Below are positions 29,809 to 64,000 of a stretch of 64,000 nt of DNA, piece by piece. Position numbers and translations under genes: made by a program. Origin of the DNA: an uncultured Acidobacteriaceae bacterium. Lineage in GTDB: Bacteria; Acidobacteriota; Terriglobia; Terriglobales; Acidobacteriaceae. How positions within the stretch are numbered: position 1 is the stretch's first letter; every line of letters begins with the position of its first letter. The notes beneath the pieces were generated by a model that was not told the DNA's origin, ran no database searches, and saw only the letters and a list, made by a program, of their open reading frames with translations. The stretch spans positions 860,694-924,693 of the forward strand of contig CAVSYW010000002.1 of assembly GCA_963732305.1 (NCBI GenBank). The letters run 5' to 3'.

Positions 29809-31304
29809 GCGCGGCCGACCATCCCGTGCTTGATCCAGCACTGGCGGCGCCGTTTCCTGTGGCCGCTTTGCCGGTGCTGCGCAATGTGCAACTGCGCAAG
29901 AATGTGGCGCACGCGATTGATGTGATCCAGGCTAAGCGGGCGAAGCTGGTTGCGGAAAAAACTGACTGGAAAGAGCTGCGCGCGGCTGCGGCGGCGATTA
30001 AAGATGAGGCGCTCGAAAATCTGGGCGCGTACCTCGAACAATTTGAGGAGCGGTGCACGGCGGCGGGCGGGCATGTGCATTGGGCGGCGGATGCGGCCGA
30101 GGCGCGGAGGATCATTCTGGAGCTGCTGCGCGAAGAGGGCGCGGACGAAGTTATCAAAATCAAGACCATGACTTCGGCGGAGATTCAGCTGAATCCGTTT
30201 CTGGAAGCGGCGGGCGTGCGGACGTACGAGACGGATCTGGCCGAGATCATTTTGCAGCTTGGCAAAGGAGAGCCCTCGCATATTGTGGTTCCGGCGCTGC
30301 ATGTGAATCGCAGCCAGGTAAGGGAGATTTTTGCGCGGACCATGGGGATCAAGGATTTGTCGGACGATCCCAAGGCGCTGACGGCGGCGGCGCGGACATA
30401 TTTGCGGCGGAAATTTCTGGATGTGCCGACGGCGATCAGCGGGGCGAATTTTCTAATTGCCGAGACGGGCGGCGTGGCGATTGTGGAGTCGGAAGGCAAC
30501 GGGCGCATGTGCCTGACGCTGCCGCGCACCATGATTACGCTGGCGGGGATCGAGAAGGTGATTCCGCGGTTCCAGGATCTTGAGGTGATGCTGCAGATGC
30601 TGGCGCGGTCGGCTACGGGCGAGCGGATGAGTCCGTATACGTCGCTGTGGACGGGCGTGACGCCGGGGGACGGGCCGCAGCGGTTTCATGTGGTGCTGCT
30701 CGATAATGGGCGGTCGTCGATTTTGGCGCGCAAGACGGAACGGCAGACTTTGCGCTGCATTCGCTGCGGGGCCTGCATGAATACGTGCCCGGTGTACCGG
30801 CAGACGGGCGGGCACGCGTATGGGTCGGTGTATCCGGGGCCGATTGGAGCGATTTTGACGCCGCAGCTGGAGCAGATGAGACACGCGCAGTCGCTGCCGT
30901 TTGCGTCGTCGTTGTGCGGGGCGTGCTACGAAGTGTGCCCGGTGAAGATCAACATTCCGGAGATCCTGATCGATTTGCGGGCGAGGGTGACGGATCAGGA
31001 ACGGCGGACGGTCGCGAAGTTTTTCGATCCGATGTATGTGGGGATGCGCACGGCGAACTTGATTTTTTCGCGGGCGTGGCTGTTTCATCTGGCGCAATGG
31101 GCGGGACGGATCGGTGCGAAGCTCGTGACGCGGCGGGATGGATGGATTCATTCGCTGCCGAGCGTGGGGGGGAAGTGGACGCAGACGCGGGATTTGCGGG
31201 GGCTGCCAAAGCAGAGTTTCCATGAGTGGTGGGCGGAACGTGAGAAAGCGAGCCAGCAAGTCAGCGGGTCAGCGAGTCAGCGAACCGGCGGGGAGGCACG
31301 ATGA
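29805..31304 (+). CDS. lutB: Lactate utilization protein B (LUD plus 4Fe-4S)
   Basis: ETDLAE, PSHIVVPALH, ESEGNG, CIRCGACMNTCP, SSLCGACYEVCP. Confidence 0.95.
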   Translation: MSAADHPVLDPALAAPFPVAALPVLRNVQLRKNVAHAIDVIQAKRAKLVAEKTDWKELRAAAAAIKDEALENLGAYLEQFEERCTAAGGHVHWAADAAEARRIILELLREEGADEVIKIKTMTSAEIQLNPFLEAAGVRTYETDLAEIILQLGKGEPSHIVVPALHVNRSQVREIFARTMGIKDLSDDPKALTAAARTYLRRKFLDVPTAISGANFLIAETGGVAIVESEGNGRMCLTLPRTMITLAGIEKVIPRFQDLEVMLQMLARSATGERMSPYTSLWTGVTPGDGPQRFHVVLLDNGRSSILARKTERQTLRCIRCGACMNTCPVYRQTGGHAYGSVYPGPIGAILTPQLEQMRHAQSLPFASSLCGACYEVCPVKINIPEILIDLRARVTDQERRTVAKFFDPMYVGMRTANLIFSRAWLFHLAQWAGRIGAKLVTRRDGWIHSLPSVGGKWTQTRDLRGLPKQSFHEWWAEREKASQQVSGSASQRTGGEAR

Positions 31305-32050
31305 ACGCGATCACCGATAGCCGCGGACGGGTTCTCGATGCGATTCGTGCCGCTACGGGTGGGTCCGCTGGGCGGAATTCTGTTGCGCCTGATGGGACGG
31401 CTGCGGAAACGCATTTGGGCGTGCCGCGCGACTATGTGCGGCAGGGAAACATGACGGTCAGCGCCCGTCACGAGCGGTTCGTGGAGCGTTTGCGGGAATA
31501 CGATGCGGAAGTAGTGGAATGCGAACCGGACGGGCTGGCGGCGGCGATTGCGGCGGTCGTGGCGGCGAGCGGCAGACATCGGTTTGTGGCGCCGCCGGGG
31601 ATTCCGGCGGAATGGACTGTCGAGGCCGCGTGGAAGATCGAAGGATGGGAATGCACATTCGACCATGGGCTGGAGACGCGGGAGATCGAGCGGGCCGAAG
31701 GTGTGATCACAGCGTGCTTTTGCGGGGTGGCGGATTCGGGTACCATCGTGCTTCACCATTCCGCCAGCGAGGGGCGCAGGGTCCTCTCTTTGCTTCCGGA
31801 CTGGCACCTGTGCGTGGTTTACGCGAGCCAGGTGGTGGAAACGCTGCCGGAGTACTTTGACCGATGCGAGGGAGCAAGGGAACGAGAAAGCAGGGAACAG
31901 GGATCAGGGAACAGGGATCAGGGCGCGAGTGGTTTGCCGAAGCTGGTGACTTGGATCTCTGGGCCGAGTGCTACGGCGGATATTGAAATGACGCGCATCA
32001 AAGGCGTGCACGGGCCGCGATTTTTGAATGTGATACTTGTCCAGGACTGA
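31301..32050 (+). CDS. lutC: Lactate utilization protein C (LUD domain), with in-frame repeat-derived insert
   Basis: SGTIVL, LSLLPDWH, ISGPSATADIE, GVHGP; CAGGGA(A/T) repeats at 31891-31925. Confidence 0.92.
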   Translation: MNAITDSRGRVLDAIRAATGGSAGRNSVAPDGTAAETHLGVPRDYVRQGNMTVSARHERFVERLREYDAEVVECEPDGLAAAIAAVVAASGRHRFVAPPGIPAEWTVEAAWKIEGWECTFDHGLETREIERAEGVITACFCGVADSGTIVLHHSASEGRRVLSLLPDWHLCVVYASQVVETLPEYFDRCEGARERESREQGSGNRDQGASGLPKLVTWISGPSATADIEMTRIKGVHGPRFLNVILVQD

Positions 32051-32112
32051 TGTGGTCGAGAGGGAACCGGGATTTGTGCTGGGTTGAAGAAGTGGGTCGG
32101 GGTTCGTGCTGT

Positions 32113-32320
32113 CCCCGGTCCCCGAATGCAAGGGACCGGGGGCACCGAGGCTCTTGCTGATTTAAGGGTCGAAAAGCAACCGCAGGTCCTTCGAATTCGT
32201 CCGCTGGGGCGGAATTCGCTCAGGATGACACAGTTGTTTTGATGCGAGCTTTGGCTGTTTCTTGTTGACATGTGCGGGCGGGGACGCCCGCACGACAGCC
32301 GGTCAGGAGACCGGCGTTAC
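32113..32320. repeat. Mosaic of three different REP-like elements between lutC and rhaI
   Basis: Family A hairpin 32113-32146; gcaggtccttcg...ctcaggatgaca element ~32180-32230; double hairpin GTGCGGGCG-GGGA-CGCCCGCAC / GCCGGTC-AGGA-GACCGGC 32272-32320. Confidence 0.7.
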
Positions 32321-32334
32321 ACTGCGAGGGGAAA

Positions 32335-33531
32335 ATGATGAAACTTTCGGATTCTGCGGTTCAGGATGCTGCATTCAAGGCGCTCGATGCGTTCAAGATC
32401 GAGATTCCCTCATGGGGATTCGCCAACACCGGCACGCGCTTTGGCAAATTTGTGCAGGCTGCCGCCGCCACCACCATTGAAGAGAAGTTTGCCGATGCGG
32501 GCGAGGTGAACAAGCTGACCGGCGTGACGCCTACCGTGGCGCTGCACGTGCTTTGGGATTTGCCCAATGGCGTGAAGGATGTGGCGGAAGTGAAGGCGCT
32601 GGAGAAGCGCTTCGGCGTGAAGTCGGGATCGATCAACCCAAATTTGTTTCAGGACCAGGAGTACAAGTACGGCTCGCTCTGCAACCCCTCGGCGGAGATT
32701 CGCGCGCACGCGCTGGAGCACATGCTGGATTCGATCGAGATCGCTAAGGCCCTCGGGTCGCGCGACATCTCGCTGTGGATGGCGGACGGCTCGAATTATC
32801 CGGGCACGCAAGCCATGCGCAAGCGCATCACCTGGCTCGAGGAAGCATTGCGGGTTTCGCACGATCACATGGCGCACTACCAAAGGCTGCTCGTCGAGTA
32901 CAAACCGTTTGAGCCGGCTTTCTACCACACCGATATTGCGGACTGGGGTATGTCGAGCCATTTTGCCAAAATGGCCGGTCCGCAGGCGCGGGTGCTGGTG
33001 GATACCGGACATCACTACAACGCGCAGAATATCGAACAGATTGTTGCGTGGCTGCTGCACACGAATATGCTGGGCGGGTTCCACTTCAACGACCGGCGCT
33101 ATGCCGACGACGATCTGACGCTGGGCTCGATCGATCCTTACCAGATCTTCCGCATCTTCCACGAGATTCACGCGGCTGCCGACGATGGGCTGGGCGGCGA
33201 GATTGCTTACATGATCGACCAGAGCCACAACCTGAAGGGCAAGATGGAAGCCATGGTGCAGACGGTGATGACGGCCCAGGAACTGTATCTGAAGGCGGCG
33301 CTGGTGGATCGCCATCAGCTGGCCGGCTTGCAGCAGTCGTGCGATCTGGTGGCTGCCGAGGAGTTGTATCGCGGCGCTTTCTGGACCGATGTGCGGCCGG
33401 TGCTGAGCGCGTGGCGCGAGGCGCATGGATTGCCTGCCGATCCGCTGGCGGCGCTCAAAGAGAGTGGCTACGTGGAGCGCGTGGGCAAGGAGCGGGGAAG
33501 CCGGAGCATGGCGGTTAGTAGCTACGCGTGA
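32335..33531 (+). CDS. rhaI: L-rhamnose isomerase (xylose-isomerase-like TIM barrel, RhaI type)
   Basis: EIPSWGFANTGTRF, INPNLFQDQEYKYGS, EYKPFEP, DWG, VDTGHH, HFNDRRYADDDL, MIDQSHN. Confidence 0.93.
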   Translation: MMKLSDSAVQDAAFKALDAFKIEIPSWGFANTGTRFGKFVQAAAATTIEEKFADAGEVNKLTGVTPTVALHVLWDLPNGVKDVAEVKALEKRFGVKSGSINPNLFQDQEYKYGSLCNPSAEIRAHALEHMLDSIEIAKALGSRDISLWMADGSNYPGTQAMRKRITWLEEALRVSHDHMAHYQRLLVEYKPFEPAFYHTDIADWGMSSHFAKMAGPQARVLVDTGHHYNAQNIEQIVAWLLHTNMLGGFHFNDRRYADDDLTLGSIDPYQIFRIFHEIHAAADDGLGGEIAYMIDQSHNLKGKMEAMVQTVMTAQELYLKAALVDRHQLAGLQQSCDLVAAEELYRGAFWTDVRPVLSAWREAHGLPADPLAALKESGYVERVGKERGSRSMAVSSYA

Positions 33532-33576
33532 AAAGCAGCTGTCAGCTAGTAGAGTTAGGTTGAAGTCGATGGTCTT

Positions 33577-33611
33577 CCCCGGTCCCCAAAAGCGAGGGAC
33601 CGGGGGCACCC
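33577..33611. repeat. REP-like hairpin family A
   Basis: ccccggtccc-caaaagcga-gggaccgggg-gcaccc. Confidence 0.8.
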
Positions 33612-34399: not shown

Positions 34400-35548
34400 T
34401 TGGCCAAAGCTAAGATCAAACGGCTCTACTTGATTCCGATCCTTTCCAAGGCGCTCGACGTGATTGAGCTGCTGGAGCAGGACAACTCTCCACTGACGCT
34501 GGAAGACGTTTACCAGAAGACCAACATCTCGAAGACCAGCGTGTACCGGATTTTGAAGACGCTGGTGCATCGCGGCTACCTGGCACAGATGCCGAATGGG
34601 CAGTACCGGCTGGTTTCGCGGCCGCGGCGGCTGTGTTTCGGTTTTGCCGTGCAGAGCGCGGAGATGCCGTATTCCGAAGCCGTGGCGCAGAGCGTGAGTG
34701 CGGCGGCCGCGGCGGCGGGCGTGGAGCTGCTGCTGCTGGACAACCGCTACGATCCGGCGATGGCGGTAAGAAATGCCGAGGAGTTTGTGGCCAAGCGCGT
34801 GGACCTGGTGCTGGAGTTCCAGGTGGAGGAGGCGGCTGCGCCGAGGGTGGCGCACATATTCAAGAAGGCCGACATTCCACTGGTCGCGATCGACGTGCCT
34901 CACCCGAATGCGACGTATTTTGGCGTGGATAATTTTGAAGTGGGCTACGAAGCGGCGGCGATTCTGGCCAACTATGCGCTGCGCAAGTGGAAGGGCAAGG
35001 TGGATCGCGTGGTGGGCCTGGGATTTATCGAGGCCGGCAGCTTTGTGCAGAACCGCATCACGGGCGCATTCGACGGAATCCGCGAACGCTTCAGGGACCT
35101 CGATCCCGAATGCTTTGTGCGGCTCGAAGGCCGCGGCATGCGCGACGCGAGCCACAAAGCGATGAAGGAGTTGTTGCGGGGATCGAAGCCCGGCGAGCAC
35201 ACGCTGGTGGCCGCGGCTACGGATTCGAGCGCGCTGGGTGTGCTGGACGCGGTGCGCGAGGCGGGCCTGGAAGAAAATTTCGCCATCGTGGGGCAGGACT
35301 GCATTCCTGAAGTGATGGAAGAGATGAAGCGCGGCGGGAGCGCGATGGTTGGCTCGATTTCGCACGAGCCGGAAACTTACGGGCCGCGGCTGATCCAGTT
35401 GGGGATTGCGATTCTGCGCGGGTATACGGTGCCTCCTTATAACTACGTGCATCACAAGGCGGTGACGCCGGAGACGCTGGGGGCGGAGGAGAAGGCGAAG
35501 CATGGCAATGGGGCGAAGGCGCTGGTGGAGCAGGGCGTAAGCCAGTAG
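34400..35548 (+). CDS. Transcriptional regulator: IclR-type HTH fused to sugar-binding domain (rhamnose locus)
   Basis: KALDVIELL...KTSVYRILKTL HTH; VAIDVPHPNATYFGVDN; paralog of 4797-6038. Confidence 0.85.
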   Translation: MAKAKIKRLYLIPILSKALDVIELLEQDNSPLTLEDVYQKTNISKTSVYRILKTLVHRGYLAQMPNGQYRLVSRPRRLCFGFAVQSAEMPYSEAVAQSVSAAAAAAGVELLLLDNRYDPAMAVRNAEEFVAKRVDLVLEFQVEEAAAPRVAHIFKKADIPLVAIDVPHPNATYFGVDNFEVGYEAAAILANYALRKWKGKVDRVVGLGFIEAGSFVQNRITGAFDGIRERFRDLDPECFVRLEGRGMRDASHKAMKELLRGSKPGEHTLVAAATDSSALGVLDAVREAGLEENFAIVGQDCIPEVMEEMKRGGSAMVGSISHEPETYGPRLIQLGIAILRGYTVPPYNYVHHKAVTPETLGAEEKAKHGNGAKALVEQGVSQ

Positions 35549-35605
35549 CCAATAGGCAATAGCCAGTGGGGAGTAGTTTTCGTGCTGGGGTTGGGGGCGT
35601 GCTTT

Positions 35606-35640
35606 CCCCGGTCCCCAAAAGCTAGGGACCGGGGGCACCC
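35606..35640. repeat. REP-like hairpin family A
   Basis: ccccggtccc-caaaagcta-gggaccgggg-gcaccc. Confidence 0.8.
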
Positions 35641-43554: not shown

Positions 43555-43615
43555 CAGGGAATAGGGAACAAGAAGTCAGGGAGCAAGGGAGCGAGGGAAC
43601 AAGGGAACGAGAAAA
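43555..43615. repeat. 7/8-nt purine-rich tandem repeats (CAGGGAA / CAAGGGAA)
   Basis: Direct reading; sister array at 44212-44292. Confidence 0.8.
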
Positions 43616-44211: not shown

Positions 44212-44292
44212 CAGGGAACAAGGGAGCAAGGGAGCGAGGGAGCGAGAAGGCAGGGAACAGGGAACAGGGAACAGGGAACAGGGAACAGGGAT
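44212..44292. repeat. 7/8-nt tandem repeats including (CAGGGAA)x5-6
   Basis: cagggaa at 44251, 44258, 44265, 44272, 44279, 44286. Confidence 0.9.
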
Positions 44293-44812: not shown

Positions 44813-45826
44813 ATGTCAGAGAAGAAAACACATAAGGTAACGCTGATTCCCGGCGACGGCATTGGGCCGGAAGTTACGCAGGCTGTGGTGCGCATTCTTG
44901 AGGCGACCGGCGCGAAGTTTGAGTGGGAGCGGTTTGCTGCCGGGGCCGAGGCCTTCGAGATTCACGGCGAGTACATTCCCGTGGCGCTGTACGAGTCGAT
45001 CGAACGCAATCGCGTGGCGCTGAAGGGGCCGGTTACGACGCCCATCGGCGGCGGGTTCAAGAGCATCAACGTTACGCTGCGCAAGAAGTTCGATCTCTTC
45101 GCCAACCTGCGGCCTATCCGCAATCTGCCCGGCCTCGATACCAAGTATCCCGGCGTGGACCTGGTGATTGTGCGCGAGAATACCGAGGGCGAGTACGTGG
45201 GCCTGGAGCACGAGGTGGTTCCGGGGGTGGTGGAAAGCATCAAGGTGATTACGGAAAAGGGATCGACGCGCATCGCGCGGTTTGCGTTTGAATATGCGCG
45301 CAAGCACGGGCGCAAGAAGATCCACTCGATTCACAAAGCCAACATTATGAAGCTGTCGGACGGGCTGTTTTTGCGCTGCGCGCGGAAGGTGGCTGAGGAG
45401 TTTCCCGAGATCACGTATGGCGAGCACCTGATCGACAACACCTGCATGCAACTGGTGATGAATCCCTTCCAGTACGACACGCTGTTGCTTGAGAATCTCT
45501 ATGGCGATATTGTGAGCGACTTGTGCGCGGGTCTTGTGGGCGGGTTGGGACTGGCACCGGGCGCGAACCTGGGCGTAGACTGCGCCATTTTTGAGGCGGT
45601 GCACGGGTCGGCGCCGGACATTGCGGGCAAAGATGTGGCCAATCCCACGGCGCTGCTGCAGTCGGCGATTCTGATGCTGCGGTATCTGGACGAGGAGGCC
45701 GCGGCCGATAAGGCGCAGAAGGCGCTGGAAGCAGTGTACGCAGAGCGCCGGACATTGACGCGCGACGTGGGCGGGACGGCGGGAACTACGCAGTTTACTG
45801 AGGCGATGCTGGCGAAAATTGCGTAA
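44813..45826 (+). CDS. icd: NAD-dependent isocitrate dehydrogenase (isocitrate/isopropylmalate dehydrogenase family)
   Basis: IPGDGIGPE, LRKKFDLFANLRP, RENTEGEY, HKANIMK, NLYGDIVSD, EAVHGSAPDIAG. Confidence 0.85.
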   Translation: MSEKKTHKVTLIPGDGIGPEVTQAVVRILEATGAKFEWERFAAGAEAFEIHGEYIPVALYESIERNRVALKGPVTTPIGGGFKSINVTLRKKFDLFANLRPIRNLPGLDTKYPGVDLVIVRENTEGEYVGLEHEVVPGVVESIKVITEKGSTRIARFAFEYARKHGRKKIHSIHKANIMKLSDGLFLRCARKVAEEFPEITYGEHLIDNTCMQLVMNPFQYDTLLLENLYGDIVSDLCAGLVGGLGLAPGANLGVDCAIFEAVHGSAPDIAGKDVANPTALLQSAILMLRYLDEEAAADKAQKALEAVYAERRTLTRDVGGTAGTTQFTEAMLAKIA

Positions 45827-45903: not shown

Positions 45904-46014
45904 GGCGATGGGATAAGACAAGGGAACAAGGGAACAAGAAGACCGGTGGTGCCTCAGTTTGAAGAGGGCTATGCCTTGGGGGCTATTGAATCCTGCAAAA
46001 GAAATGTCCTTGCA

Positions 46015-46112
46015 CCGTCCCTACGGGACTCCGCAGCCAATCTCTGGAATCCGCTTTCCCCACGCTGAAGCGCGGGGCTAACAAACATCGCGCCTCCGGC
46101 GCGCTCGCGACA
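46015..46112. repeat. REP/MITE-like palindromic element between convergent genes
   Basis: gtccc-tac-gggac and ccccacgc-tgaa-gcgcgggg-cta hairpins. Confidence 0.55.
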
Positions 46113-46123: not shown

Positions 46124-48322
46124 TCAGTATCCGAAGATCTCGACGAGCATGCGGTTGATCTCGGGATCGCTGCGGAGTTCATTCAGGAAAAGGGCGGAAG
46201 TAGCGGTAAGACTGAAGGCGGGCGTGGATTCAGCCTGTACGCTGGCGAGTGCCTGGCGAATGACTGGGATGTCATCCAATCCGGCGTGAACGGACAAGAG
46301 CGTGAAGGCAGGAACGAATTCGCCCCGGCTGCTGCGGTCTTCCAGTTCATTCAATAGGCGGAGGGCGTCATTGCGGCGCCCTGCTCGGCCGTACGCCGTT
46401 CCCAGCAGACCGATGAAGAGCGGCGCGCGCGAGGCGGCGACGACCTTTTCCAGGGTTTCAACGGCCTCCTCGTTGCGGTGGAGAAGACACAGCGACAGAC
46501 CTTTGGCCCACTGCCCAAACAGGTAATCCGGCTGCAATTCCACCGCCTGCGAAGCGGACCGCAACGCCTGTTCAAAGCGCCCAGGGATTACGTAGGGAAA
46601 AGTTGCAAGGCCGTGGATAAACGGGGAAAGCGGATCCAGTTGCGAGGCCAGCGTGACATGAGCAAACGACTCGTCCGGGTGACGGTCCTGCGCCAGGAAT
46701 ATGCCGTAGTAGGCATGCGCGAGGGAGGAGCGGGGGTTGATGGCGAGAGCTTTCTGGAAGTGCGGGCCGGCTTCACGCCAATTGGAGACGAAGTAGAAGG
46801 CGTAGAAGGCACGCGAGAAGTTGACCTCCCAAAGTTCTGGAGCGAGCTCGAAGGCCTTGGTGACGGCGGCGAGCGCCGGCGATTTGCCTTCTTCGTGTGA
46901 GATCAAGCCGTAGACGCGCAGGATGCCGTAGCAATCGGCAAGCCCCGACCAGGCGAGGGCAAAACCGGGGTCGAGTTCAAGGGCCTGCTGGAAGCACTTC
47001 ATGCCCAGGCGTACGGAAGAGGGCGAGCGCTGGCTGCAGTGATGGCGGCCCTTGAGGTAAAGCTCGTAGGCCTCAAGGTTCTGGGTGGCCGGCTTGACGC
47101 CCGCTCCGAGGGCCACTTCGAGCTGATTGGCGATGGCGCGGGCAATTTCGTCCTGCACTTCAAAGATGTCTTCCATCTGCCGATCGTAGCGCTCCGACCA
47201 AAGCTGGAAGCCGTTCCCAGCGTCGACCAACTGCACGGTTACGCGGACGCGATTGCCGGCACGGCGCACACTGCCGTCAAGAACGTTGGCGACGTGAAGC
47301 TTCGACGCGATCTCGCCCATCGCGGTGTTCGTGCCTTTAAAGGAGAACGACGAGCTACGGGCGGCGACACGCAAGCCGTCAACTTGGCTCAACGCGATCA
47401 GAATCTCCTCGGCCAATCCGTCGCTGAAATATTCGTTTTCCTTGTCCGCGCTGAGATTGGCGAAGGGAAGAACGGCGATGGATGGAGTTTCGGACGAACG
47501 AACCGCGGGCTGCGTGAGATCCTTCAGCGCCTGTTTCAAGGGGCCCATGCCGGGAAAGCGGGCGGACGGGTCCTTCGCCATGCAGCGCGTGACGATCGAT
47601 TCCAGCCCCGGAGTTACATGAGGTGCGATCTCCCGCAGCGGGCGCGGTTCTTTATGGAGGACAGCTGCCATGGTTGAAATCGGCGATGCTTCGGAAAACG
47701 CACGCCTGCCGGAAAGCATCTCGTAGAGCAGCACACCGAACGCGAATACGTCGGAGCGGGCGTCTACGGGTTTGCACTCTACCTGCTCGGGCGACATGTA
47801 AGCTGCCGTTCCCAGGATGATTCCTGCCTGCGTCGCGCCCGAGATGGTTTCGTCGGATCCGGCAGTCTCCTGCACCTTCGCCAGTCCGAAGTCCAGCACC
47901 TTGACGCGGCCAGCGGCCTTGACGTTGGCCGGCTTGAGATCGCGATGGATGACGCCCCGCTGGTGCGCGTACTCCAACGCGTCCACAATCCGCTTCGCAA
48001 TACGCACCGCTTCCTCTACCGGGATCGGTCCCTTGGCGATGCGTTCCACCAGGGTGTCGCCTTCAATCAGCTCCATCACCAGCGCGCCTTCTTCTACGCC
48101 GTAGATGGTGGCGATGTTGGGGTGATTGAGCGAAGCCAGCACCTTGGCCTCGCGCGTGAAGCGGGCCAGCCTCTCAGGATCGTTGGCAAGCGCTGCAGGA
48201 AGAATTTTGATGGCGACTTCGCGGTCCAGCCGGGTGTCGGTAGCGCGGTAAACCTCGCCCATGCCTCCAGCGCCGAGCTTGGAAGTGAGCTTGTAGTGTG
48301 CGATGAAGGCTGGGTGGGCCAT
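46124..48322 (-). CDS. Soluble eukaryotic-like Ser/Thr kinase with TolB-like domain and TPR repeats
   Basis: LGAGGMGEVY, VAIK, HRDLKPAN, DFG, YMSPE; SIAVLPFANLS...YFSDGLAEE; TPR helices. Confidence 0.93.
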   Translation of the reverse strand: MAHPAFIAHYKLTSKLGAGGMGEVYRATDTRLDREVAIKILPAALANDPERLARFTREAKVLASLNHPNIATIYGVEEGALVMELIEGDTLVERIAKGPIPVEEAVRIAKRIVDALEYAHQRGVIHRDLKPANVKAAGRVKVLDFGLAKVQETAGSDETISGATQAGIILGTAAYMSPEQVECKPVDARSDVFAFGVLLYEMLSGRRAFSEASPISTMAAVLHKEPRPLREIAPHVTPGLESIVTRCMAKDPSARFPGMGPLKQALKDLTQPAVRSSETPSIAVLPFANLSADKENEYFSDGLAEEILIALSQVDGLRVAARSSSFSFKGTNTAMGEIASKLHVANVLDGSVRRAGNRVRVTVQLVDAGNGFQLWSERYDRQMEDIFEVQDEIARAIANQLEVALGAGVKPATQNLEAYELYLKGRHHCSQRSPSSVRLGMKCFQQALELDPGFALAWSGLADCYGILRVYGLISHEEGKSPALAAVTKAFELAPELWEVNFSRAFYAFYFVSNWREAGPHFQKALAINPRSSLAHAYYGIFLAQDRHPDESFAHVTLASQLDPLSPFIHGLATFPYVIPGRFEQALRSASQAVELQPDYLFGQWAKGLSLCLLHRNEEAVETLEKVVAASRAPLFIGLLGTAYGRAGRRNDALRLLNELEDRSSRGEFVPAFTLLSVHAGLDDIPVIRQALASVQAESTPAFSLTATSALFLNELRSDPEINRMLVEIFGY

Positions 48323-50525: not shown

Positions 50526-51617
50526 ATGAAAACTAAACAACCTGTAGGCATCCTGGGCGCGACTGGAATGGTCGGCCAGCGTTATATTCAACTGCTCGAA
50601 AACCATCCCTGGTTCGAGGTGAGCTGGGTTGCGGCCAGCGACCGGTCGAGTGGAAAGACTTACGGCGAGGCGGCGAAGTGGCGATTGGATACGCCGCTGC
50701 CCGAGCGCATCGCGAAGATGGTGGTGGCGCCGGCCGAACCGGAAGGCGTGCCGAAGATTATTTTTGCCAGCGTGGACGCGGCGATTGCGCGCGAGATGGA
50801 ACCGAAGTTTGCCGCGGCCGGCTGCGCCGTGATCTCGAACTCGAGCGCCTTCCGCATGACGCCGAACGTGCCGCTTGTGATTCCCGAGGTGAATGCCGAT
50901 CACCTGCACCTGATTGAAGAGCAGCCGACGCGCAAGGAATCGGGCGGCTACATTGTGACCAATCCCAACTGCTCGACGATTGGATTGGTGATGGCGCTGA
51001 AGCCGATCGAGGAGCGCTTCGGCATCGAGACGATTTTTGTGACGACAATGCAGGCTGTCAGCGGCGCGGGCTATCCCGGCGTGGCGTCGATGGATATTCT
51101 CGACAACGTGGTGCCGTATATCGGCAGCGAAGAAGAGAAGATGGAGGCGGAGACGCTGAAGCTGCTGGGCCGGATGGAGAGCCACGGCGTGGCTCCGCTG
51201 GGCGCGAAGATTACGGCGCACTGCAATCGCGTGCCGGTGGTGGACGGGCACACCGAATGTGTATCTCTGAAGCTCGGCAAGAAGCTGGGCAGGGAAGTGA
51301 CGCGCGAAGACATTCTGGCGGCATGGGCGGAGTTCAATCCGCTGGCCGGGCTGGAATTGCCGTTCGCCCCCGCGACGCCCGTGGTGTGGACCGCGCAAAA
51401 CGACCGGCCGCAACCGCGGCTCGATCGCAATCGTGGCAGCGGCATGGCGGTGACGGTGGGACGGTTGCGCCCGTGCACTGCGCTTGACTGGAAGTTCGTA
51501 CTGCTTTCGCATAACACCGTGCGCGGCGCGGCCGGCGCAACCATTTTGAATGCCGAGATGCTGGTGAGCCTGGGGAAACTGGAAAACAGCTCTCAGCTTT
51601 CAGCTGTCAGCTCTTAG
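50526..51617 (+). CDS. asd: Aspartate-semialdehyde dehydrogenase
   Basis: GILGATGMVGQ, SNSSAFRM, NPNCST, QAVSGAGYPG, CNRVPVVDGH, HNTVRGAAG. Confidence 0.96.
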   Translation: MKTKQPVGILGATGMVGQRYIQLLENHPWFEVSWVAASDRSSGKTYGEAAKWRLDTPLPERIAKMVVAPAEPEGVPKIIFASVDAAIAREMEPKFAAAGCAVISNSSAFRMTPNVPLVIPEVNADHLHLIEEQPTRKESGGYIVTNPNCSTIGLVMALKPIEERFGIETIFVTTMQAVSGAGYPGVASMDILDNVVPYIGSEEEKMEAETLKLLGRMESHGVAPLGAKITAHCNRVPVVDGHTECVSLKLGKKLGREVTREDILAAWAEFNPLAGLELPFAPATPVVWTAQNDRPQPRLDRNRGSGMAVTVGRLRPCTALDWKFVLLSHNTVRGAAGATILNAEMLVSLGKLENSSQLSAVSS

Positions 51618-51621
51618 CTTG
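51587..51621. repeat. Heptamer array CAGCT(N2)x5 containing the asd stop; inverted array at 51721-51755
   Basis: cagctct cagcttt cagctgt cagctct tagcttg. Confidence 0.85.
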
Positions 51622-51765
51622 TTGTGCGGGCGGTGGGTGGCATTGGCTGACAACCGATTTTCGGGCGGAGCGGCGTGAGGGAAGAATCTTGCGCGGGCCT
51701 CGGGAGCCGGCGGAAGAAAATAGCTGAAGGCTGATAGCTGATGGCTGAAAGCTGGTTTGGATTAC

Positions 51766-53193
51766 ATGAACTTGGTAGTGATGAAGTTTGGCGGCACGTC
51801 GGTAGAAGATGCGGCGGCGATTGGACGAACCGCGGCCATTGTGGCTGGGCGCGTGGCCCTGGGCAAGAGTCCGGTGGTGGTGGTGAGCGCCATGGCCAAG
51901 GTGACCGACCAGTTGCTGCGCGCCGCGTCCGCGGCTTCGCAGGGTGATCGTGCCGGTGCCCTCGCCATTAGTTCGCGCCTCCGCTGCCGGCATTGCGATA
52001 CCGCGCGCGACCTGGTGAAGGATGCGGCCGAAATCGCCGCGCTGGTCCGAATCCTCGATGAGAAATTCGCGACACTCGATGAAGTGCTGCGCGGCCTGGC
52101 GGCGATTCGCGAGCTTACGCCGCGTATCTCCGATCTGATTGTGAGCTACGGCGAGCGGCTTTCGAGCCGCATCGTGACTGCGGCCTTTCGAGAACGCGGC
52201 GTTAACGCGGCGCATGTGGACGCGCGCGAAGTGATCGTCACCGATTCGGAGTTTCAGAAGGCCGCGCCGCTCGACGACATTATTGAAAAGCGCGCGCAGG
52301 AGAAACTGCTGCCGCTTCTCGGCGAGGGCAAGGTGCCGGTGATGGGCGGCTTCATCGCGTCGAACGAAGCGGGACTGACGACAACGCTGGGTCGCGGCGG
52401 ATCGGATTACACCGGCGCACTCGTGGGCGGCGCGCTCGAGTCCGAGACCATCGAGATCTGGACCGACGTGGACGGCATCATGACCGCCGATCCGCGCGTG
52501 TGTCCCGATGCGCTGCGCGTGAAGGTGATCAGCTTTGAGGAGGCGGCGGAGCTGGCGTACTTCGGCGCCAAGGTGCTGCACCCGGCCACGATTTTGCCTG
52601 CGGTGAAGAAAAATATTCCGGTGCTGGTGCTGAACAGCCGCAACGCGGCATGCGAAGGCACGCGCATTATCTCCGTTGCGCCGCACTGCAAGAGCCCGTT
52701 CAAGTCGATCGCCGTCAAAAGAAAGCTGACCATCATCGACATTGTGGCCAGCCGCATGCTGATGACGCACGGCTACCTGAGTAAGATGTTCGCGATCTTC
52801 GACCGGCACAAGTGCCCCATCGATATGGTTTCGACGAGCGAGGTTTCGATCTCCGTTACGGTCGACTCGAACGCGAGCCTGCCCCAAATTGACGCCGACC
52901 TGAAGGCGCTGGCCGACGTGACTTACGAGGGCAAGAAGGCGCTGATCTGCATGGTGGGCGAGGACATTCGCGGCCAGCAAGGCATTGCCGCGAAGGTGTT
53001 CAATGCCATCCGGCACGTGAACGTGCGCATGATCTCGCAGGGCGCAAGCGAAATCAACATGAGCTTCATGATCGAAGAGGATGATGCCGATGAGGCGGTG
53101 CGCTCGCTGCACGCGGCGTTTTTCAAAGAGCCCGATCCGGAGATCTTCGACGTGGAAGCGAGGAAACAGTTGTCAGTGATCAGTGGTCAGTGA
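51766..53193 (+). CDS. lysC: Aspartate kinase (LysC, two ACT domains)
   Basis: VMKFGGTSV, SYGERLS, TTLGRGGSDY, WTDVDG, FGAKVLHP, STSEVS, SQGAS. Confidence 0.96.
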   Translation: MNLVVMKFGGTSVEDAAAIGRTAAIVAGRVALGKSPVVVVSAMAKVTDQLLRAASAASQGDRAGALAISSRLRCRHCDTARDLVKDAAEIAALVRILDEKFATLDEVLRGLAAIRELTPRISDLIVSYGERLSSRIVTAAFRERGVNAAHVDAREVIVTDSEFQKAAPLDDIIEKRAQEKLLPLLGEGKVPVMGGFIASNEAGLTTTLGRGGSDYTGALVGGALESETIEIWTDVDGIMTADPRVCPDALRVKVISFEEAAELAYFGAKVLHPATILPAVKKNIPVLVLNSRNAACEGTRIISVAPHCKSPFKSIAVKRKLTIIDIVASRMLMTHGYLSKMFAIFDRHKCPIDMVSTSEVSISVTVDSNASLPQIDADLKALADVTYEGKKALICMVGEDIRGQQGIAAKVFNAIRHVNVRMISQGASEINMSFMIEEDDADEAVRSLHAAFFKEPDPEIFDVEARKQLSVISGQ

Positions 53194-53256
53194 TCAGAGA
53201 ATCGTGCACCGTGCGTCGTGACCTGATCACGGTCCACGAACCACGGTCCACGATTC
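53167..53256. repeat. Heptamer arrays (CAGTGAT/CAGTGGT containing the lysC stop; then inverted NNNCGTG/CCACGNN sets)
   Basis: cagttgt cagtgat cagtggt cagtgat cagagaa; aatcgtg caccgtg cgtcgtg ... ccacgaa ccacggt ccacgat. Confidence 0.75.
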
Positions 53257-53267
53257 CGAAGGAACCT

Positions 53268-59035: not shown

Positions 59036-59040
59036 GCGGA

Positions 59041-60756
59041 CTACCGGCGGCGCCCGCCGCCACCGCTTGAGTGGCTCATCCTGGGAGCTTTGGGCGCACT
59101 GAAATGTCCACCGCCGCCATAGTTTTTGGGAGCGCTATATTTTGGCGCGCTGAACCTCGGTTGCTTTTGGCTGCTGAATCCGCGAAAACCGCCCGACTCA
59201 TTCCGCGCCATTGTGTTACCGCGCGGCTCATACCCGCGGCTTGAATACGTGCGCGGGTCGATTCCTGGCGTGCGATAGGATTGCGGTGCGCGATAGGTCG
59301 AATACGGATTTGTGTATGCGTATGAGGGTCGCTTCGCGTAATTCTGTTGCGCCGGCCGGTTCGTGTACCCGTAGCCCGGATTGCTGAACGTTTGCGGACG
59401 AGTCGCGTACCCTGGATTCGAATACGATTGCGGACGATTGGGATAGGTCTGCGGGTGATACGCGTAGTTCTGCGACGTGGGGCGCTGGAAGTTCTGCGCG
59501 GGCAGCGAGGGACGCGTATAACTGTATGCCGGCTGCTGCGCACCGCGATTCGAGTAGGCCTCGGGGCGAGCGGGTTCGCGGTAAGGCTCGGGCTGCCGCG
59601 CGTAGTTCTGCGCTGGTGCGCGATTGTCGTACGCGCCGCCGCGCTGATATGAATCCTGGCGCGAATTCTGGTACGCGTTTTGCGGCGTGGGAAAGCGGCG
59701 ATAGGAATTGTCATATCCGCCCGGCGCGCGCTCATTCTGCCGCCAGCCGTTGTAGGCGCGCGCACCACCACGTGGCAGGCCCCAATCGCGTACTGATGCG
59801 CTATTGGTAAAGTAGCCGCTGTGATTGAAAAGGACTGCGTGCCCGATCCAGTCGAGCCCCCATGACAGCAGGCCGAAGGGCGTGCGATCGAAGGCCCCGA
59901 GCGCGAAGCTCAGTCCATATTGAATCGGCAGGCCGTTAAAGAATGAACCGAGGGCGCCGACGAGCGAGAAGCCCGGATATGGGGCAATGGGCGGTCCATA
60001 GACATCCCACGGATCGTAGGTCGGCACGTAGACGATCTGCGGATTGGGCGGCGCGATGTCGACGTAACCCTGGTTTTCAGTCACGTCTTCCTGCGGCGTG
60101 CTTTCGAGATTGCCGGCCTGCTGGGCGCGGTCGCGCAGCACTTGAACCGTCTGCATCACATCCTGCGGCTGGTTGTAATAGGCGTTGCCGAGGGCCGTGG
60201 TCCAATCCAGGTTGTGGTTCAACATGTCGAGCACATCGGAGAATGCGGTAAGCGCCTTCACGCTCGGATCCCAGTCGGCCTGCTGATCGGCTCCGTCGGC
60301 GATCTGATCGGGCGCGCTGTAACCCTCGGCGCGCATTTGCTGCAACCACTGATCGGCGACGGCCACCTGCGCGGGATACGTGGACGCGGTGAGTATCTGC
60401 GCCAGGAGCGCGTCGGGATAGAGCGCAATGGGCGCCAGAAGCTGCTCAAGCTGGTCGGCGCTGAGAGCCTGAGCCGGCGTGCCCGGCTGCGTCAGTTGTT
60501 CATCGGGAGACGGCGCGTCGTAAGGCTGCTGCGCGTATGGCTGCTCTTGAGGAGCGTACTGCGGCTGCTGATATTGCGGTTGTTGATACTGCGGCTGCTG
60601 GTATTGGGGCTGTGCGTAAGAGCTGCCGGGTGCGGCGTAATACGGCGAAGCGGGATACGCCTGCTGAGCGGTGAGGAGTGCAGGTGCACAGGCGAGAGCA
60701 AGACATGCGATTGCGGCGACTGAAGAAAATGCGTGCAAGCTCGATGCGGTCTTCAT
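59041..60756 (-). CDS. DUF3300 domain secreted protein with long low-complexity tail
   Basis: LEQLLAPIALYPDALLAQIL, WDPSVKALTAF, LGNAY, VQVLRDRA, IVYVPTYDP; (PQYQQ) repeats; Y/R/P/Q/G-rich tail. Confidence 0.9.
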   Translation of the reverse strand: MKTASSLHAFSSVAAIACLALACAPALLTAQQAYPASPYYAAPGSSYAQPQYQQPQYQQPQYQQPQYAPQEQPYAQQPYDAPSPDEQLTQPGTPAQALSADQLEQLLAPIALYPDALLAQILTASTYPAQVAVADQWLQQMRAEGYSAPDQIADGADQQADWDPSVKALTAFSDVLDMLNHNLDWTTALGNAYYNQPQDVMQTVQVLRDRAQQAGNLESTPQEDVTENQGYVDIAPPNPQIVYVPTYDPWDVYGPPIAPYPGFSLVGALGSFFNGLPIQYGLSFALGAFDRTPFGLLSWGLDWIGHAVLFNHSGYFTNSASVRDWGLPRGGARAYNGWRQNERAPGGYDNSYRRFPTPQNAYQNSRQDSYQRGGAYDNRAPAQNYARQPEPYREPARPEAYSNRGAQQPAYSYTRPSLPAQNFQRPTSQNYAYHPQTYPNRPQSYSNPGYATRPQTFSNPGYGYTNRPAQQNYAKRPSYAYTNPYSTYRAPQSYRTPGIDPRTYSSRGYEPRGNTMARNESGGFRGFSSQKQPRFSAPKYSAPKNYGGGGHFSAPKAPRMSHSSGGGGRRR

Positions 60757-60987
60757 GGTAATTCCTCACAGTCCGTTCATGCTCGGCGCGAATCATTCGT
60801 CGCCTGGAGCCGTTGAGCGGCCGAGCCCACTCCGTTGTGGCAGGAGACCTATGAATACCCGCGCGCTGCCCCGCAGAGCCTGGAGAAGGCTTATCTATAT
60901 GACCCCTGCTAGGGGGATTAGTTTCGTCTGTGGGGAGAATAGTTGCGGGGGGCCGGCACGCTCGATTGCGTGGCCGCGCCGGCTTCG

Positions 60988-61491
60988 TTATCCGGCCAAC
61001 GTCTTCTTGACGAGCTCGCTTACGGCTTTGCCGTCGGCGCGCACGCCCGCCGTTTGCAGTTTGGCCTGTACCGCCTTCATCGCTGGGCCCATCTCTTTCT
61101 GAACGGGCTTGTGGCCGAGCGTGGCTTCGAGTTCGCCGAGGGCCTCGGCGACCAATTTCGCCAGCCCTGCTTCGTCCAGCGCTTTGGGCAGGAACTCTTC
61201 GATGACCACGATCTCCGCGGCTTCCTTGTTTGCGAGGTCCAGCCGGTTGCCCTTGGTGAACTGCTCGATCGAGTCGCGCCGCTGCTTGATCATGCTCGAG
61301 AGAACCTGCTCGGATTCGGGCTGGGTGAGCGAAACGTCGATTTGCTTTTGCGATGCGCGCTTCTCTATGGCTCGGTTCATCAGCGCCGACTTGATCAGAC
61401 GCAGGGTTCCGAGGCGCTCCGCGTCGTGGGCTTTCATGGCGGTGACCATTTGCTTACTGATCTGGGCTTCGAGTGCGCCGGGTTCGGACAT
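60988..61491 (-). CDS. yqeY: GatB/YqeY domain protein
   Basis: AMKAHDAERLGTLRLIKSAL, KQRRDSIEQF..GNRLDLANKE, FLPKAL. Confidence 0.93.
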   Translation of the reverse strand: MSEPGALEAQISKQMVTAMKAHDAERLGTLRLIKSALMNRAIEKRASQKQIDVSLTQPESEQVLSSMIKQRRDSIEQFTKGNRLDLANKEAAEIVVIEEFLPKALDEAGLAKLVAEALGELEATLGHKPVQKEMGPAMKAVQAKLQTAGVRADGKAVSELVKKTLAG

Positions 61492-61493
61492 TT

Positions 61494-61528
61494 TAGCTCC
61501 TAGCTGTTAGCTCCTAGCTTGTAGCTAG
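61494..61528. repeat. Heptamer array TAGCT(N2)x5 that supplies the yqeY Shine-Dalgarno
   Basis: tagctcc tagctgt tagctcc tagcttg tagctag; minus-strand AGGAG 6 nt before ATG 61491. Confidence 0.8.
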
Positions 61529-61725
61529 AGGCCAGTCAAACCAGCGCCCGCGGGAGCGAGGCTGGCCAAGGTGAAATTGTAACGATCCAGGCCCCCGGGA
61601 TGCACGCGGCGCGCAATGGTTGCATCGCCGGGGAACTTCGCTTTCACAGAGCGAAACCGACTGTAGGACGCTGCCAAGACTTTTGCCCTCCTACGGCATT
61701 TATATAAGTGACAAGTGGGAGGTGG

Positions 61726-62649
61726 ATGATGATGAGGTTCTGGAGAACAACGGTCGCGCTGGCTGGTTTGGGAATTGCCGCCATGCCGGCTTTTGGCGCC
61801 AATCCAGCGCGCCCCGGCACCGTGAACTACATCGAAGGCGCGGCATATCTCAACGGCAGACCGCTGAATCAACAAAGCGTGGGAAGCCTCGCGCTGGATT
61901 CCGGCCAGGTGCTCACGACCGGATCGGGCAAGGCCGAGATACTGCTCACGCCGGGCATCTTTCTGCGCGTGGACGATGGCAGCGCGGTGAAGATGATTTC
62001 GCCCGATCTGGCGCAGACACAAGTTGCGCTGGAGCGCGGGCGGGCCGGCGTGGAAGTGGACCAGATCTTTCCGCAGAACGAGGTGCAGATCCTCGACAAC
62101 GGCGTGACGACTCAATTGATCAAGCCCGGTTACTACGAGTTCAACGCCAACCAGCCGGAGGCCATGGTCTTCAATGGCCGTGCCGAGGTGGCAGTAGGCA
62201 ACGGCAAATGGGAGACGGTAAAGGGTCACCATGAGCTGGCGCTCGTGGCGGACGGCGCGCACGAAAAGACAGTCGGCTTCGACTCGCACCCCGTCAACGA
62301 TGAGCTTTACAACTGGAGTAGCCTGCGCTCCCAGTATTTGGCCGAAGCCAACAACCAGATTGCCGGCGAGTACGCTTACGGGGCGGGCTTCTATCCGGGG
62401 TGGTATTGGGACCCGTACATGTACGACTACACGTTCCTCGGCATGGATCCGTTCTTTAGCCCGTTCGGATGGGGCTTCTATCCGTGGGGCGGGTACGGGG
62501 GCTTCTACGGAGGTGGGTTCTACGGCGGGCGAGGATTCTACCACGGCGGCAGCAGGGGATTCGTGGGTGGCGGCTTCCACGGCGGCGGTGGATTCCATGG
62601 CGGCGGCGGCGGCGGCTTTCACGGCGGCGGCGGTGGTGGCCGGCGATAA
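61726..62649 (+). CDS. Secreted FecR-domain-like protein with Gly/Phe/Tyr-rich tail
   Basis: Signal peptide; GTVNYIEG, GQVLTTGSGKAEILLTPG, LERGRAGVEV; tail GGFHGGGG..RR (start may be ATG 61729/61732). Confidence 0.75.
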   Translation: MMMRFWRTTVALAGLGIAAMPAFGANPARPGTVNYIEGAAYLNGRPLNQQSVGSLALDSGQVLTTGSGKAEILLTPGIFLRVDDGSAVKMISPDLAQTQVALERGRAGVEVDQIFPQNEVQILDNGVTTQLIKPGYYEFNANQPEAMVFNGRAEVAVGNGKWETVKGHHELALVADGAHEKTVGFDSHPVNDELYNWSSLRSQYLAEANNQIAGEYAYGAGFYPGWYWDPYMYDYTFLGMDPFFSPFGWGFYPWGGYGGFYGGGFYGGRGFYHGGSRGFVGGGFHGGGGFHGGGGGGFHGGGGGGRR

Positions 62650-62672
62650 ACAGCGCCAGACCATACTCACCG

Positions 62673-62706
62673 AAAATGGCTGGATTCGGGGAGTCCGGCC
62701 ATTTTT
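62673..62706 (+). terminator. Intrinsic terminator (potentially bidirectional)
   Basis: AAAATGGC TGGAT-loop-GTCCG GCCATTTTT. Confidence 0.6.
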
Positions 62707-62809
62707 CTGCCTGTCGTATCTTTTCCACAGTTGAAATCGATCACAAAACTCACATAATTGTGTATTATGTGGATGACAAGCAACGAATCTGCTCCGAAAT
62801 GAGGGAAAA

Positions 62810-63991
62810 ATGATCCGCAAAACGCGCCTTTTTACTCCCGGCCCGACGCCGCTGCTTCCGGCGGCCCAGTTTGCCATGGCGGCGGCCGATATGCACCACC
62901 GGACCGCAGAGTTTCGGGCCCTTTTCCAGAAGGTTCTGGCGCAGCTCAAGGTTTTTGTGGGCACGAAGAACGACGTGCTGCTTTTGTCCTGTTCGGGCAC
63001 GGGCGCGATGGAAGCGTCGGTGTCGAACCTGACTTCGCCGGGCGATAAAGTGCTGGTGCTGACGGCGGGCAAATTTGGCGAGCGCTGGACCGGACTGGCG
63101 AAGGCCTTCGGCTGTGCGCCGGATGTGGTGACTGCTCCTTACGGGCAGACCTTCGACCTGGCGCAGGTGCGCGCCGCGCTTAAGCCCGAGCACAAGGTGA
63201 TCTTTACGCAGGCCACCGAGACTTCGACGGCGGTGCGGAACGATATCCAGGCTATTGCCAAGCTGCGCGACGAGATTGCGCCGAACACACTGCTCGTTGT
63301 CGATGGCATCACCGGGCTCGGCACTACGCATTTCGATGTCGACGGCTGGGGCATCGACGTGATCATTGGCGGTTCGCAGAAGGCGGTGATGATGCCGCCC
63401 GGTCTCGCTTACCTGAGCGTGAGCGAAAAGGCGTGGGCGGCGATGGAGACCACGAAGAATCCGCGCTACTACTTTGACCTGCGCAAGGAGCGTAAAAACG
63501 CCGTCAAGGGCGAGAGCGCGTACACGCCGGCAGTGGCGCTGGTTGCGGGTCTGGGCGCGGCGCTCGACTACATTGCGGGGCAAGCAGGCGGCGATTTGGA
63601 GAAGGGCCGCATCGCGCTGATCGATAACGCGCAGGTGAACGCGGAAGCGACGCGCGCGGGGCTGGTGTCGCTGGGATTCACGCTGTTTGCGCCGACGGCG
63701 CCCGCGGCGGCGGCCACCGCGGTTGCCGTGCCGGAGGGCATGGACTCGGGCGCGGTGGTGAAGGCGCTGAAGGCGAAGTTCGCGCTGGTGATTGCCAATG
63801 GGCAGGGCGAGATGCAGGGCAAGATCTTCCGCGTGGCGCACCTGGGCTACTTTGACTATCTCGACACCGTGGCGCTGCTGGGCGCGATGGAGTTTATCGC
63901 AAGAGACACGCTGGGGCTTCCGGTGAAGTGGGGACAGGCAGTGGCCGCGGCGCAGGAAGTGTATGCGAAAACAGTGGTCGGTGGTCAGTGA
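62810..63991 (+). CDS. Class V PLP aminotransferase (alanine-glyoxylate/serine-pyruvate family)
   Basis: LFTPGPT, HHRTAEF, SGTGAMEA, TETST, VVDGIT, GGSQKAVMMPPG, IFRVAHLG. Confidence 0.93.
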   Translation: MIRKTRLFTPGPTPLLPAAQFAMAAADMHHRTAEFRALFQKVLAQLKVFVGTKNDVLLLSCSGTGAMEASVSNLTSPGDKVLVLTAGKFGERWTGLAKAFGCAPDVVTAPYGQTFDLAQVRAALKPEHKVIFTQATETSTAVRNDIQAIAKLRDEIAPNTLLVVDGITGLGTTHFDVDGWGIDVIIGGSQKAVMMPPGLAYLSVSEKAWAAMETTKNPRYYFDLRKERKNAVKGESAYTPAVALVAGLGAALDYIAGQAGGDLEKGRIALIDNAQVNAEATRAGLVSLGFTLFAPTAPAAAATAVAVPEGMDSGAVVKALKAKFALVIANGQGEMQGKIFRVAHLGYFDYLDTVALLGAMEFIARDTLGLPVKWGQAVAAAQEVYAKTVVGGQ

Positions 63992-64000
63992 TCAGTGGTC

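Follow-up and report, generated by a model that had tools for sequence, protein, structure and literature searches.

Tandem 7- and 8-nucleotide repeats at gene ends in a Terracidiphilus genome and their probable kinship with the hairpin arms of PF05635 cassettes

Repeat arrays at gene ends in a 64-kb window

The window analyzed here, a 64,000-nucleotide (nt) stretch of DNA (G000:C2:860694-924693; G, C and L numbers are our own handles for genomes, contigs and loci), belongs to a 4.92-Mb genome of 60% G+C from a soil Terracidiphilus (Acidobacteriaceae, Acidobacteriota) and carries tandem arrays of 7- and 8-nt units at the ends of several genes. These gene-end repeats are confirmed as real, are found genome-wide and are of a known but unexplained kind. 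Pfam identified the genes concerned as encoding LutB, LutC, an IclR-HTH/sugar-binding regulator, Asd, aspartokinase (LysC), DapB, YqeY and a class-V aminotransferase. The arrays were located with Tandem Repeats Finder, with which a reading at codon level was concordant, and no Rfam family corresponds to them. An earlier note on this DNA had proposed that such repeats furnish stop codons, short protein tails, in-frame inserts and a Shine-Dalgarno sequence, and all seven of its local claims hold in the sequence. Positions below are those of the window, on the plus strand unless stated otherwise.

Stop codons lie within repeat units at the ends of the regulator gene, asd, lysC and the aminotransferase gene. 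The regulator TAG (35546-35548) falls in a (TAGCCAA)x3.7 array (35540-35565), and the asd TAG (51615-51617) falls in a (CAGCTNT)x4.7 array (51587-51619) that also codes for the Asd tail NSSQLSAVSS. A (CAGTGRT)x3.6-4.4 array (53167-53197) encodes the LysC tail QLSVISGQ together with the TGA stop (53191-53193), and the aminotransferase stop (63989-63991) is contained in (CAGTGGT)x4.6 (63972-64000). The asd array is the first arm of an inverted pair whose second arm, (AGCTGAN)x5 (51720-51754), ends 13 nt 5' of the lysC ATG; the two arrays flanking the asd-lysC spacer fold as a single stem at -86.5 kcal/mol, against -64.2 +/- 3.7 kcal/mol in shuffled sequences (z = -6.1). The aminotransferase array is likewise a first arm, with its partner just outside the window (window-scale positions 64096-64128), 92 nt downstream and 5 nt before the next gene. 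Between lysC and dapB there is a self-contained hairpin with CGTG-core and CACG-core heptamer arms (53198-53258), for which folding alone is weak (z = -2.3) and which has counterparts of the same arrangement in L009 and L065.

Other arrays lie in or beside coding sequence. An octamer array, (CAGCGAGT)x4.6 (31247-31283), is in frame within the C-terminal tail of lutB, directly before the overlap of the lutB stop with the lutC start, and an in-frame insert of 20 residues in lutC has (CAGGGAW)x4.7 (31891-31923) as its core. On the minus strand, an (AGCTAGG/AGCTAAC) array (61493-61526) immediately 5' of the yqeY start is the source of its Shine-Dalgarno sequence (AGGAG, 5 nt 5' of the ATG). An octamer array of AGGGAGCA and AGGGAACA units lies 5' of a DinB-family gene (43563-43611), with the strand type of cassette first arms (see below) on its top strand. 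Adjoining arrays of (AGGGAGCA)x3.9 and (CAGGGAA)x5.9 (44213-44291) begin 5 nt past the stop of that gene and precede nrdR, and a short (ACAAGGGA)x2.6 array (45918-45938) lies about 90 nt past the stop of the gene at 44813-45826.

Altered protein ends

Comparison of orthologous gene ends, which the earlier note had called for, revealed that the ends or inserts of Asd, LysC, the aminotransferase, LutB and LutC vary with the local array. The conserved part of LysC ends ...FDVEAR(K), and the last two to nine residues and the stop are array coded and differ with the local unit (tails among relatives include QLSVISGQ, QLLASSS, AVHSS and others). Aminotransferase tails also vary along with the array unit. 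Most LutB orthologues end ...WWAAR(G)KEAR*, to which the window protein adds approximately 14 residues; G042, G045 and G016 carry other in-frame arrays, of AGGGAACA type, in the LutB C-terminal tail at the same spot before the lutB/lutC overlap. The LutC insert is missing from 17 of 21 genus orthologues, is present in G017 with (CAGGGAA)x4 and is degenerate in G016. The G017 lutC has TGA codons within the match region, yet it reads through in frame.

In relatives, Asd ends ...SLGKLEPAAVAAARA, while the window Asd runs ...SLGKLE and then NSSQLSAVSS, from an array of about five units. In the alignment, an array-coded tail has taken the place of the ancestral Asd tail, although this G+C-rich sequence leaves it ambiguous whether the array was inserted before the old tail sequence or written over it. 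None of the close relatives compared (L001, L004, L005, L007 and L030) has the first arm that the window has at the asd end, and independent arrays follow a truncated Asd in L017, L031 and L046. The second arm 5' of lysC is common to L001, L004, L007 and L030 and is absent from L005 and L016. In outgroup genera (Acidicapsa/Silvibacterium-like, L062-L077), the asd stop overlaps the lysC start (ATGA), while in Terracidiphilus the two genes are separated by 20 to 150 nt (51615-51770 in the window), in many relatives with arrays or palindromes. Because the genes overlap in the outgroups and are separated in Terracidiphilus, the spacer itself looks like an insertion product.

Genome-wide abundance, position and polarity

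At a score of ≥40, the genome contains 240 period-7 and 232 period-8 arrays; two block-shuffled controls gave 0 and 0 to 1. The earlier note would have failed had the repeats been no more frequent than composition predicts, and this is clearly not the case. Periods of 4, 5, 10 and 11 showed little or no excess over shuffled controls. The dominant unit families are CAGGGAA, CAGTGGT/CAGTGAT, TAGGGAC, TAGCTNN, the octamers AGGGAACA, AGGGAGCA and AGGGACTA, and the hexamer GAGTGT. Array length has its mode at four to five units, and a G3/C3 run is present in 255 of 448 units (57%). Of the genomes sampled, 14 of 24 within the genus contain (CAGGGAA)x3, compared with 1 of 16 in the neighboring family.

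Genes were called with our own crude hexamer-score caller, for which stop positions are reliable and start positions are not. Intergenic DNA holds 376 of the 578 merged arrays (65%; 94 expected), genes are depleted (118 arrays versus 448 expected), and 53 arrays contain a stop codon (15.6 expected). Density is highest in spacers between codirectional genes (0.61 per kb), followed by convergent (0.48) and divergent (0.25) spacers. The predicted positional bias at gene boundaries is strong but confined to stops: in codirectional spacers, 149 of 377 arrays lie ≤10 nt from the upstream stop, compared with 40 expected under uniform placement, but only 35 lie near starts (40 expected), i.e., there is no start-codon bias. 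Of 198 stop-adjacent arrays, 142 follow just 3' of the stop and 55 contain it; the tails coded by arrays are short, with a median length of 2 codons and none longer than 13. Stop-adjacent arrays are strongly polar, as 174 of 191 (91%) carry the YAG-N4 or AGGGA strand type, which is that of cassette first arms, on the sense strand. Intragenic arrays are concentrated in the first and last deciles of open reading frames (ORFs), the first-decile excess probably being, at least in part, an artifact of longest-ORF start calls.

Two functional readings of the arrays were discarded. As three-frame stops, the arrays would be expected to favor stop triplets on the sense strand, but these occur in 132 of 428 consensus units on the sense-type strand, compared with 180 on the other strand and 87 after shuffling. 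As phase-variable contingency repeats, they would switch a gene from a 5' coding or promoter position; they lie instead at or after stops, the tails are short, and inserts are in frame in all carriers examined.

PF05635 cassettes carry the same units in inverted arms

The genome has nine genes for PF05635 (23S-rRNA-IVS/Avd-like) proteins, eight of which are flanked by inverted arrays, with no unit used twice. The arm units of these armed genes rank among the commonest array units of the genome. Across the genus, 112 PF05635 genes in 41 genomes have arrays of 5- to 10-nt units on both sides in 80 cases, on one side in 25 and on neither in 7. In two-armed cassettes, the order is always YAG-type arm, loop and complementary arm, and since a two-armed element reads alike on both strands, this order is a property of the element rather than of gene orientation. 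The terminal inverted repeats of tandem heptamers in these cassettes are able to form a stem. All elements examined lie between protein-coding genes. The cassette protein corresponds to TIGR02436, and among solved structures Xanthomonas XCC0516 (2GSC; E = 1e-23) is the nearest to it; the few named matches in a homologue search were from Terracidiphilus and none was from Xanthomonas, and PF22296 is listed for many homologues in the source table.

In a FastTree phylogeny, on which the clade assignments rest, PF05635 proteins group by unit core (AGGGA; AGCT; CAGT/CAGAGA/CAGGT; AGTGAA octamers; the AGTGTG hexamer; and a deep clade with 8- to 9-mers). At different loci, 53% of arm-unit pairs from proteins with ≥70% identity differ by no more than one base, compared with 3% of pairs at the same locus from proteins with 40 to 55% identity. 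Judged from these sequence comparisons, the arm unit follows the protein clade and not the locus. Three genomes have two PF05635 cassettes, differing in clade and arm unit, within approximately 2 kb of each other, at L158 (G024:C27), L128 (G023:C8) and L149 (G048:C240).

Several lines of evidence tie the gene-end arrays to the cassettes. First, of 435 arrays away from PF05635 genes, 353 (81%) share their exact unit with a cassette arm in another genome, compared with 22 (5%) after shuffling of letters. Second, the nine cassettes of the genome itself match 182 of its arrays, whereas random sets match 64 +/- 32 (P = 0.0016), and of the 400-kb samples of five other genomes in which this enrichment was sought, that of G023 reproduced it (10 of 32 arrays versus 2.4 expected; P = 0.003). 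Third, the same sites exist in filled and gene-less states. The window has no PF05635 gene, and its arrays are gene-less arms, but at the lysC-end site, where the CAGTGRT array of the window takes the place of a cassette's first arm, 3 of 80 relatives (L014, L051 and L066) have a PF05635 gene between CAGTG-type arms; L001, L003, L004 and L023 have a gene-less hairpin there, and L005 has a solo arm. Of 30 genomes, 3 also have a PF05635 gene in a second slot, where hairpins without a gene, from several unit families, occur in other genomes; at the aminotransferase slot, most of 29 genus relatives carry a hairpin, and these hairpins represent at least five unit families. Where the unit changes at a conserved slot, both hairpin arms switch together. 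The units, which the earlier note had described as varied in sequence, are indeed many, but they are not free and form a limited set common to the inverted arms of PF05635 cassettes. Given this limited common set, hairpin-element arms are a better reading of the arrays than free microsatellites.

Across the genome, paired arrays are a minority. A partner that pairs at ≤-40 kcal/mol lies no more than 250 nt away for 123 arrays, compared with 40 to 45 in controls, and 32 clean pairs of neighboring arrays have a median loop of 96 nt. A gene for RNase III is present in the genome. It is the only one and lies approximately 1.2 kb upstream of a CAGTGGT-armed PF05635 cassette, with one gene between them (G000:C5:352872-354857); this may be a coincidence but is noteworthy, since RNase III cleaves the stems of intervening sequences.

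Interpretation and rival explanations

Starting from the observed abundance, position and polarity of the arrays, their effects on proteins, the units in common with cassette arms, the agreement of unit with clade and the filled and gene-less states of single sites, we propose, with a probability of roughly 0.6, that the arrays belong, as arms, to a single family of hairpin elements that includes the PF05635 cassettes. A full element would consist of a run of about four to five units (YAG-N4, AGGGA-N2-3 or CGTG-N3), a loop and the reverse-complement run. Some elements would hold a gene for the PF05635 four-helix-bundle protein in the loop, as do ORF-bearing 23S rRNA intervening sequences; many would be gene-less hairpins, and most would be single first arms directly past a stop codon. 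The elements would be found again and again in the same slots between a stop and the following start, chiefly of codirectional genes, with related genomes differing in the unit family in a given slot. Where the spacer is very short or missing, the array would overlie the gene end, and the protein end could then change in three ways: by a stop inside the array (tails of ≤13 codons), by replacement of the ancestral tail (Asd) or by retention of the array in frame (LutB and LutC). Cassettes, or recombination between like arms, may seed arrays, whose copy number may then be altered by slippage. Paired arms could form double-stranded RNA stems cleaved by RNase III, a process for which the experimental evidence concerns rRNA intervening sequences, and the PF05635 pentamer may recognize its own unit. 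A broader and distinctly tentative extension, which we hold as possible and no better than that, is that PF05635 proteins are unit-specific partners of their own arms, in the way that transposases are of their terminal repeats, that cassettes and recombination between like arms are the source of the arrays and that repeats of this type in cyanobacteria, Xanthomonas, Acidobacteria and other bacteria are their footprints.

A number of observations weigh against the proposed hairpin-element family. A partner arm is detectable for only about 15 to 25% of arrays, and most arrays are therefore solo. Enrichment for each genome's own cassette units was not significant in the 400-kb samples of G041, G053 and G007. 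G051, which is 96% complete and has no PF05635 hit, still has 44 arrays per Mb, a genome with a single cassette has 22 per Mb, and the correlation of cassette number with array density is not significant among six genomes (rho = 0.71; P = 0.11). In the genome of the window, AGCT-core and CAGGT-core arrays are without a matching cassette in the assembly. Gene-less hairpins could be deletion remnants of cassettes, but their loops have at most weak homology to cassette interiors, consisting of arm matches and one 36-nt stretch with 86% identity. No movement, target-site duplication or catalytic protein was seen for the elements. Finally, the agreement of unit with protein clade could reflect simple coinheritance of a linked module.

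Ordinary neutral microsatellites, generated by replication slippage and surviving wherever selection allows (spacers, dispensable tails and loops), with PF05635 genes present by chance, would account for the variation in copy number and unit among close relatives, for the depletion of arrays within genes (118 versus 448) and for their occurrence in genomes with zero or one cassette. We nevertheless consider this unlikely, as slippage predicts neither the 91% strand polarity nor a bias toward stops rather than starts or midspacer positions, and it does not explain the restricted unit set held in common with cassette arms (81% versus 5%), the joint change of unit in both arms at conserved slots or the near absence of excess at periods of 4, 5, 10 and 11. 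A second rival is that selection maintains the arrays themselves as cis-acting RNA elements. As stems between cistrons they could serve RNase III processing or protect 3' ends, or they could couple translation, in that a ribosome stopping in the first arm would free the second arm and the next start; the cassettes would then only borrow such stems. Conservation of slots across the genus despite changing units, the density in codirectional (0.61 per kb) compared with divergent (0.25 per kb) spacers, the stop in or at the first arm with the second arm abutting the next start, and the direct asd-lysC overlap in outgroup genera all fit this explanation, but most arrays are solo and unable to form a stem, L317, L328 and L005 lack a hairpin at the same sites, and selection for a stem would explain neither jumps between discrete unit families nor the agreement of the unit with PF05635 clade. 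We consider this explanation unlikely as well.

The earlier note had itself suggested a process that adds varied repeats at gene boundaries in this lineage. The population of 7- and 8-nt arrays at gene boundaries, resembling cyanobacterial short tandemly repeated repetitive (STRR) sequences, stands, but no enzyme is indicated. A dedicated telomerase-like or reverse-transcriptase-based enzyme that extends gene ends with heptamers might draw on the relationship of PF05635 to Avd, the reverse transcriptase cofactor of diversity-generating retroelements; the arrays are, however, internal rather than at DNA ends, the RVT_1 reverse transcriptase was not found in the 91%-complete assembly, and no candidate enzyme is linked to the arrays, which makes such an enzyme very improbable. 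Just as hard to credit are G-quadruplex-forming regulatory repeats, as proposed for Xanthomonas GGGAATC and Nostoc GGGGA(C/T)T. The G3/C3 runs in 255 of 448 units and the modal four to five units, which fits the four-tract preference reported in PMC4692102, would suit a quadruplex, but 43% of arrays (CAGTGRT, TAGCTNN, CAGCTNT and CGTG types) have no G-run and yet have the same position, polarity and pairing, so a quadruplex cannot be the general explanation, and a paired C-rich arm would favor duplex over quadruplex.

Relation to known repeats

Bacterial heptamer repeats have been known since 1990, and to our knowledge they have no accepted origin or function. The STRR units of heterocystous cyanobacteria include CCCCAGT and CAACAGT and are found between genes roughly a hundred times or more in each genome, in several unit families. 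The present arrays are similar in consisting of tandem heptamers with many dispersed intergenic copies (240 period-7 arrays, with 65% of merged arrays intergenic) and in that the STRR units rotate to CAGT-N3, like CAGTGGT and CAGTTCA here. They differ in belonging to another phylum (Acidobacteriota), in having units other than the three canonical ones and in also including octamers and hexamers. The arrays work like STRR but are not members of the cyanobacterial STRR families. The repetitive extragenic palindromic (REP) sequences and bacterial interspersed mosaic elements of enterobacteria are abundant hairpins in 3' untranslated regions of codirectional genes, often near the stop, but REPs are single imperfect palindromes tied to RAYT transposases rather than tandem arrays of 7 to 8 nt.

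The repeats GGGAATC in Xanthomonas and GGGGA(C/T)T in Nostoc are overrepresented in noncoding DNA between aligned ORFs, ≤50 bp past the stop and on the sense strand, with about four units preferred and, in each Xanthomonas genome, 70 to 75 inverted pairs in convergent orientation (Rehm et al. 2015, PMC4692102). The arrays described here share the location between aligned ORFs, the position close past the stop on the sense strand, the preference for about four units and the inverted pairs. They differ in that each genome described there has one G-rich unit, interpreted as a quadruplex, whereas the present genome has dozens of units, 43% of them without a G-run, and these are not of the GGGNATC type: 57% have a G3/C3 run, but the leading units include CAGTGGT, CAGTGAT and TAGCTNN. 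The text of PMC4692102 does not mention PF05635 (XCC0516, "four helix" and "intervening" are absent), though the nearest structure to the cassette protein is Xanthomonas XCC0516.

The 23S rRNA intervening sequence of Coxiella burnetii, which carries an S23p gene, is excised by RNase III and has a stem region with GACAGAT heptamers whose number varies between strains (Warrier et al. 2016, PMC4990558). Such intervening sequences (C. burnetii and Leptospira) resemble the cassettes in having a PF05635/S23p gene in the loop of a long stem of terminal inverted repeats, and GACAGAT rotates to CAGATGA; here, however, the elements are between protein-coding genes, the arms consist wholly of tandem units and most copies are gene-less. 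Direct repeats of TAACTGA in Beggiatoaceae, Cyanobacteria and Bacteroidetes are intergenic, with two to six or more copies, and occur in distant phyla (MacGregor 2015, PMC4679880), but these are a single unit mostly just 5' of starts, compared with many units and a stop bias here. The class of repeat is therefore already in print (STRR, Rehm 2015, MacGregor 2015 and Warrier 2016). Literature searches found no paper on such arrays in Acidobacteria, and a full-text search found none linking PF05635 to heptamer arrays outside rRNA. New are the slot-level series that ties gene-end arrays to cassettes, the test of locus against clade and the documented changes of protein ends.

Other features of the window

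A second repeat class, which looks REP-like, consists of G+C-rich palindromic units (CCCCGGTCCCC...GGGACCGGGG), with an 80-nt x3.5 tandem block (15718-16092) and a single copy past the regulator gene (35600-35640). Similar CCCATCC...GGGTGGG hairpins occupy the asd-lysC and lysC-dapB spacers of relatives (L001, L018 and L030). The region 21886-25601 is a repeated-domain coding region with a 309-bp unit x12 of 92% identity, and a 15/30-nt coding repeat lies at 60557-60613 on the minus strand within the gene at 59041-60756. Rfam matched an Acido-Lenti-1 small RNA (RF01687) at 46058-46103 on the plus strand (42.3 bits; gathering score, 37), immediately beyond the 3' end of the gene at 46124-48322 on the minus strand.

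Significance

For annotation, the arrays mean that approximately 55 genes per genome end within an array and that the last residues of such proteins, e.g., Asd, LysC and LutB, are repeat coded, variable and probably dispensable. The genus offers an unusually clear natural experiment, as one slot holds different unit families across genomes, some slots retain the PF05635 gene and the unit, as compared between sequences, tracks the protein clade. The units common to gene-end arrays and the hairpin arms of PF05635 cassettes provide a testable lead on the origin of these repeats, which could be followed through cognate binding and RNase III mapping.

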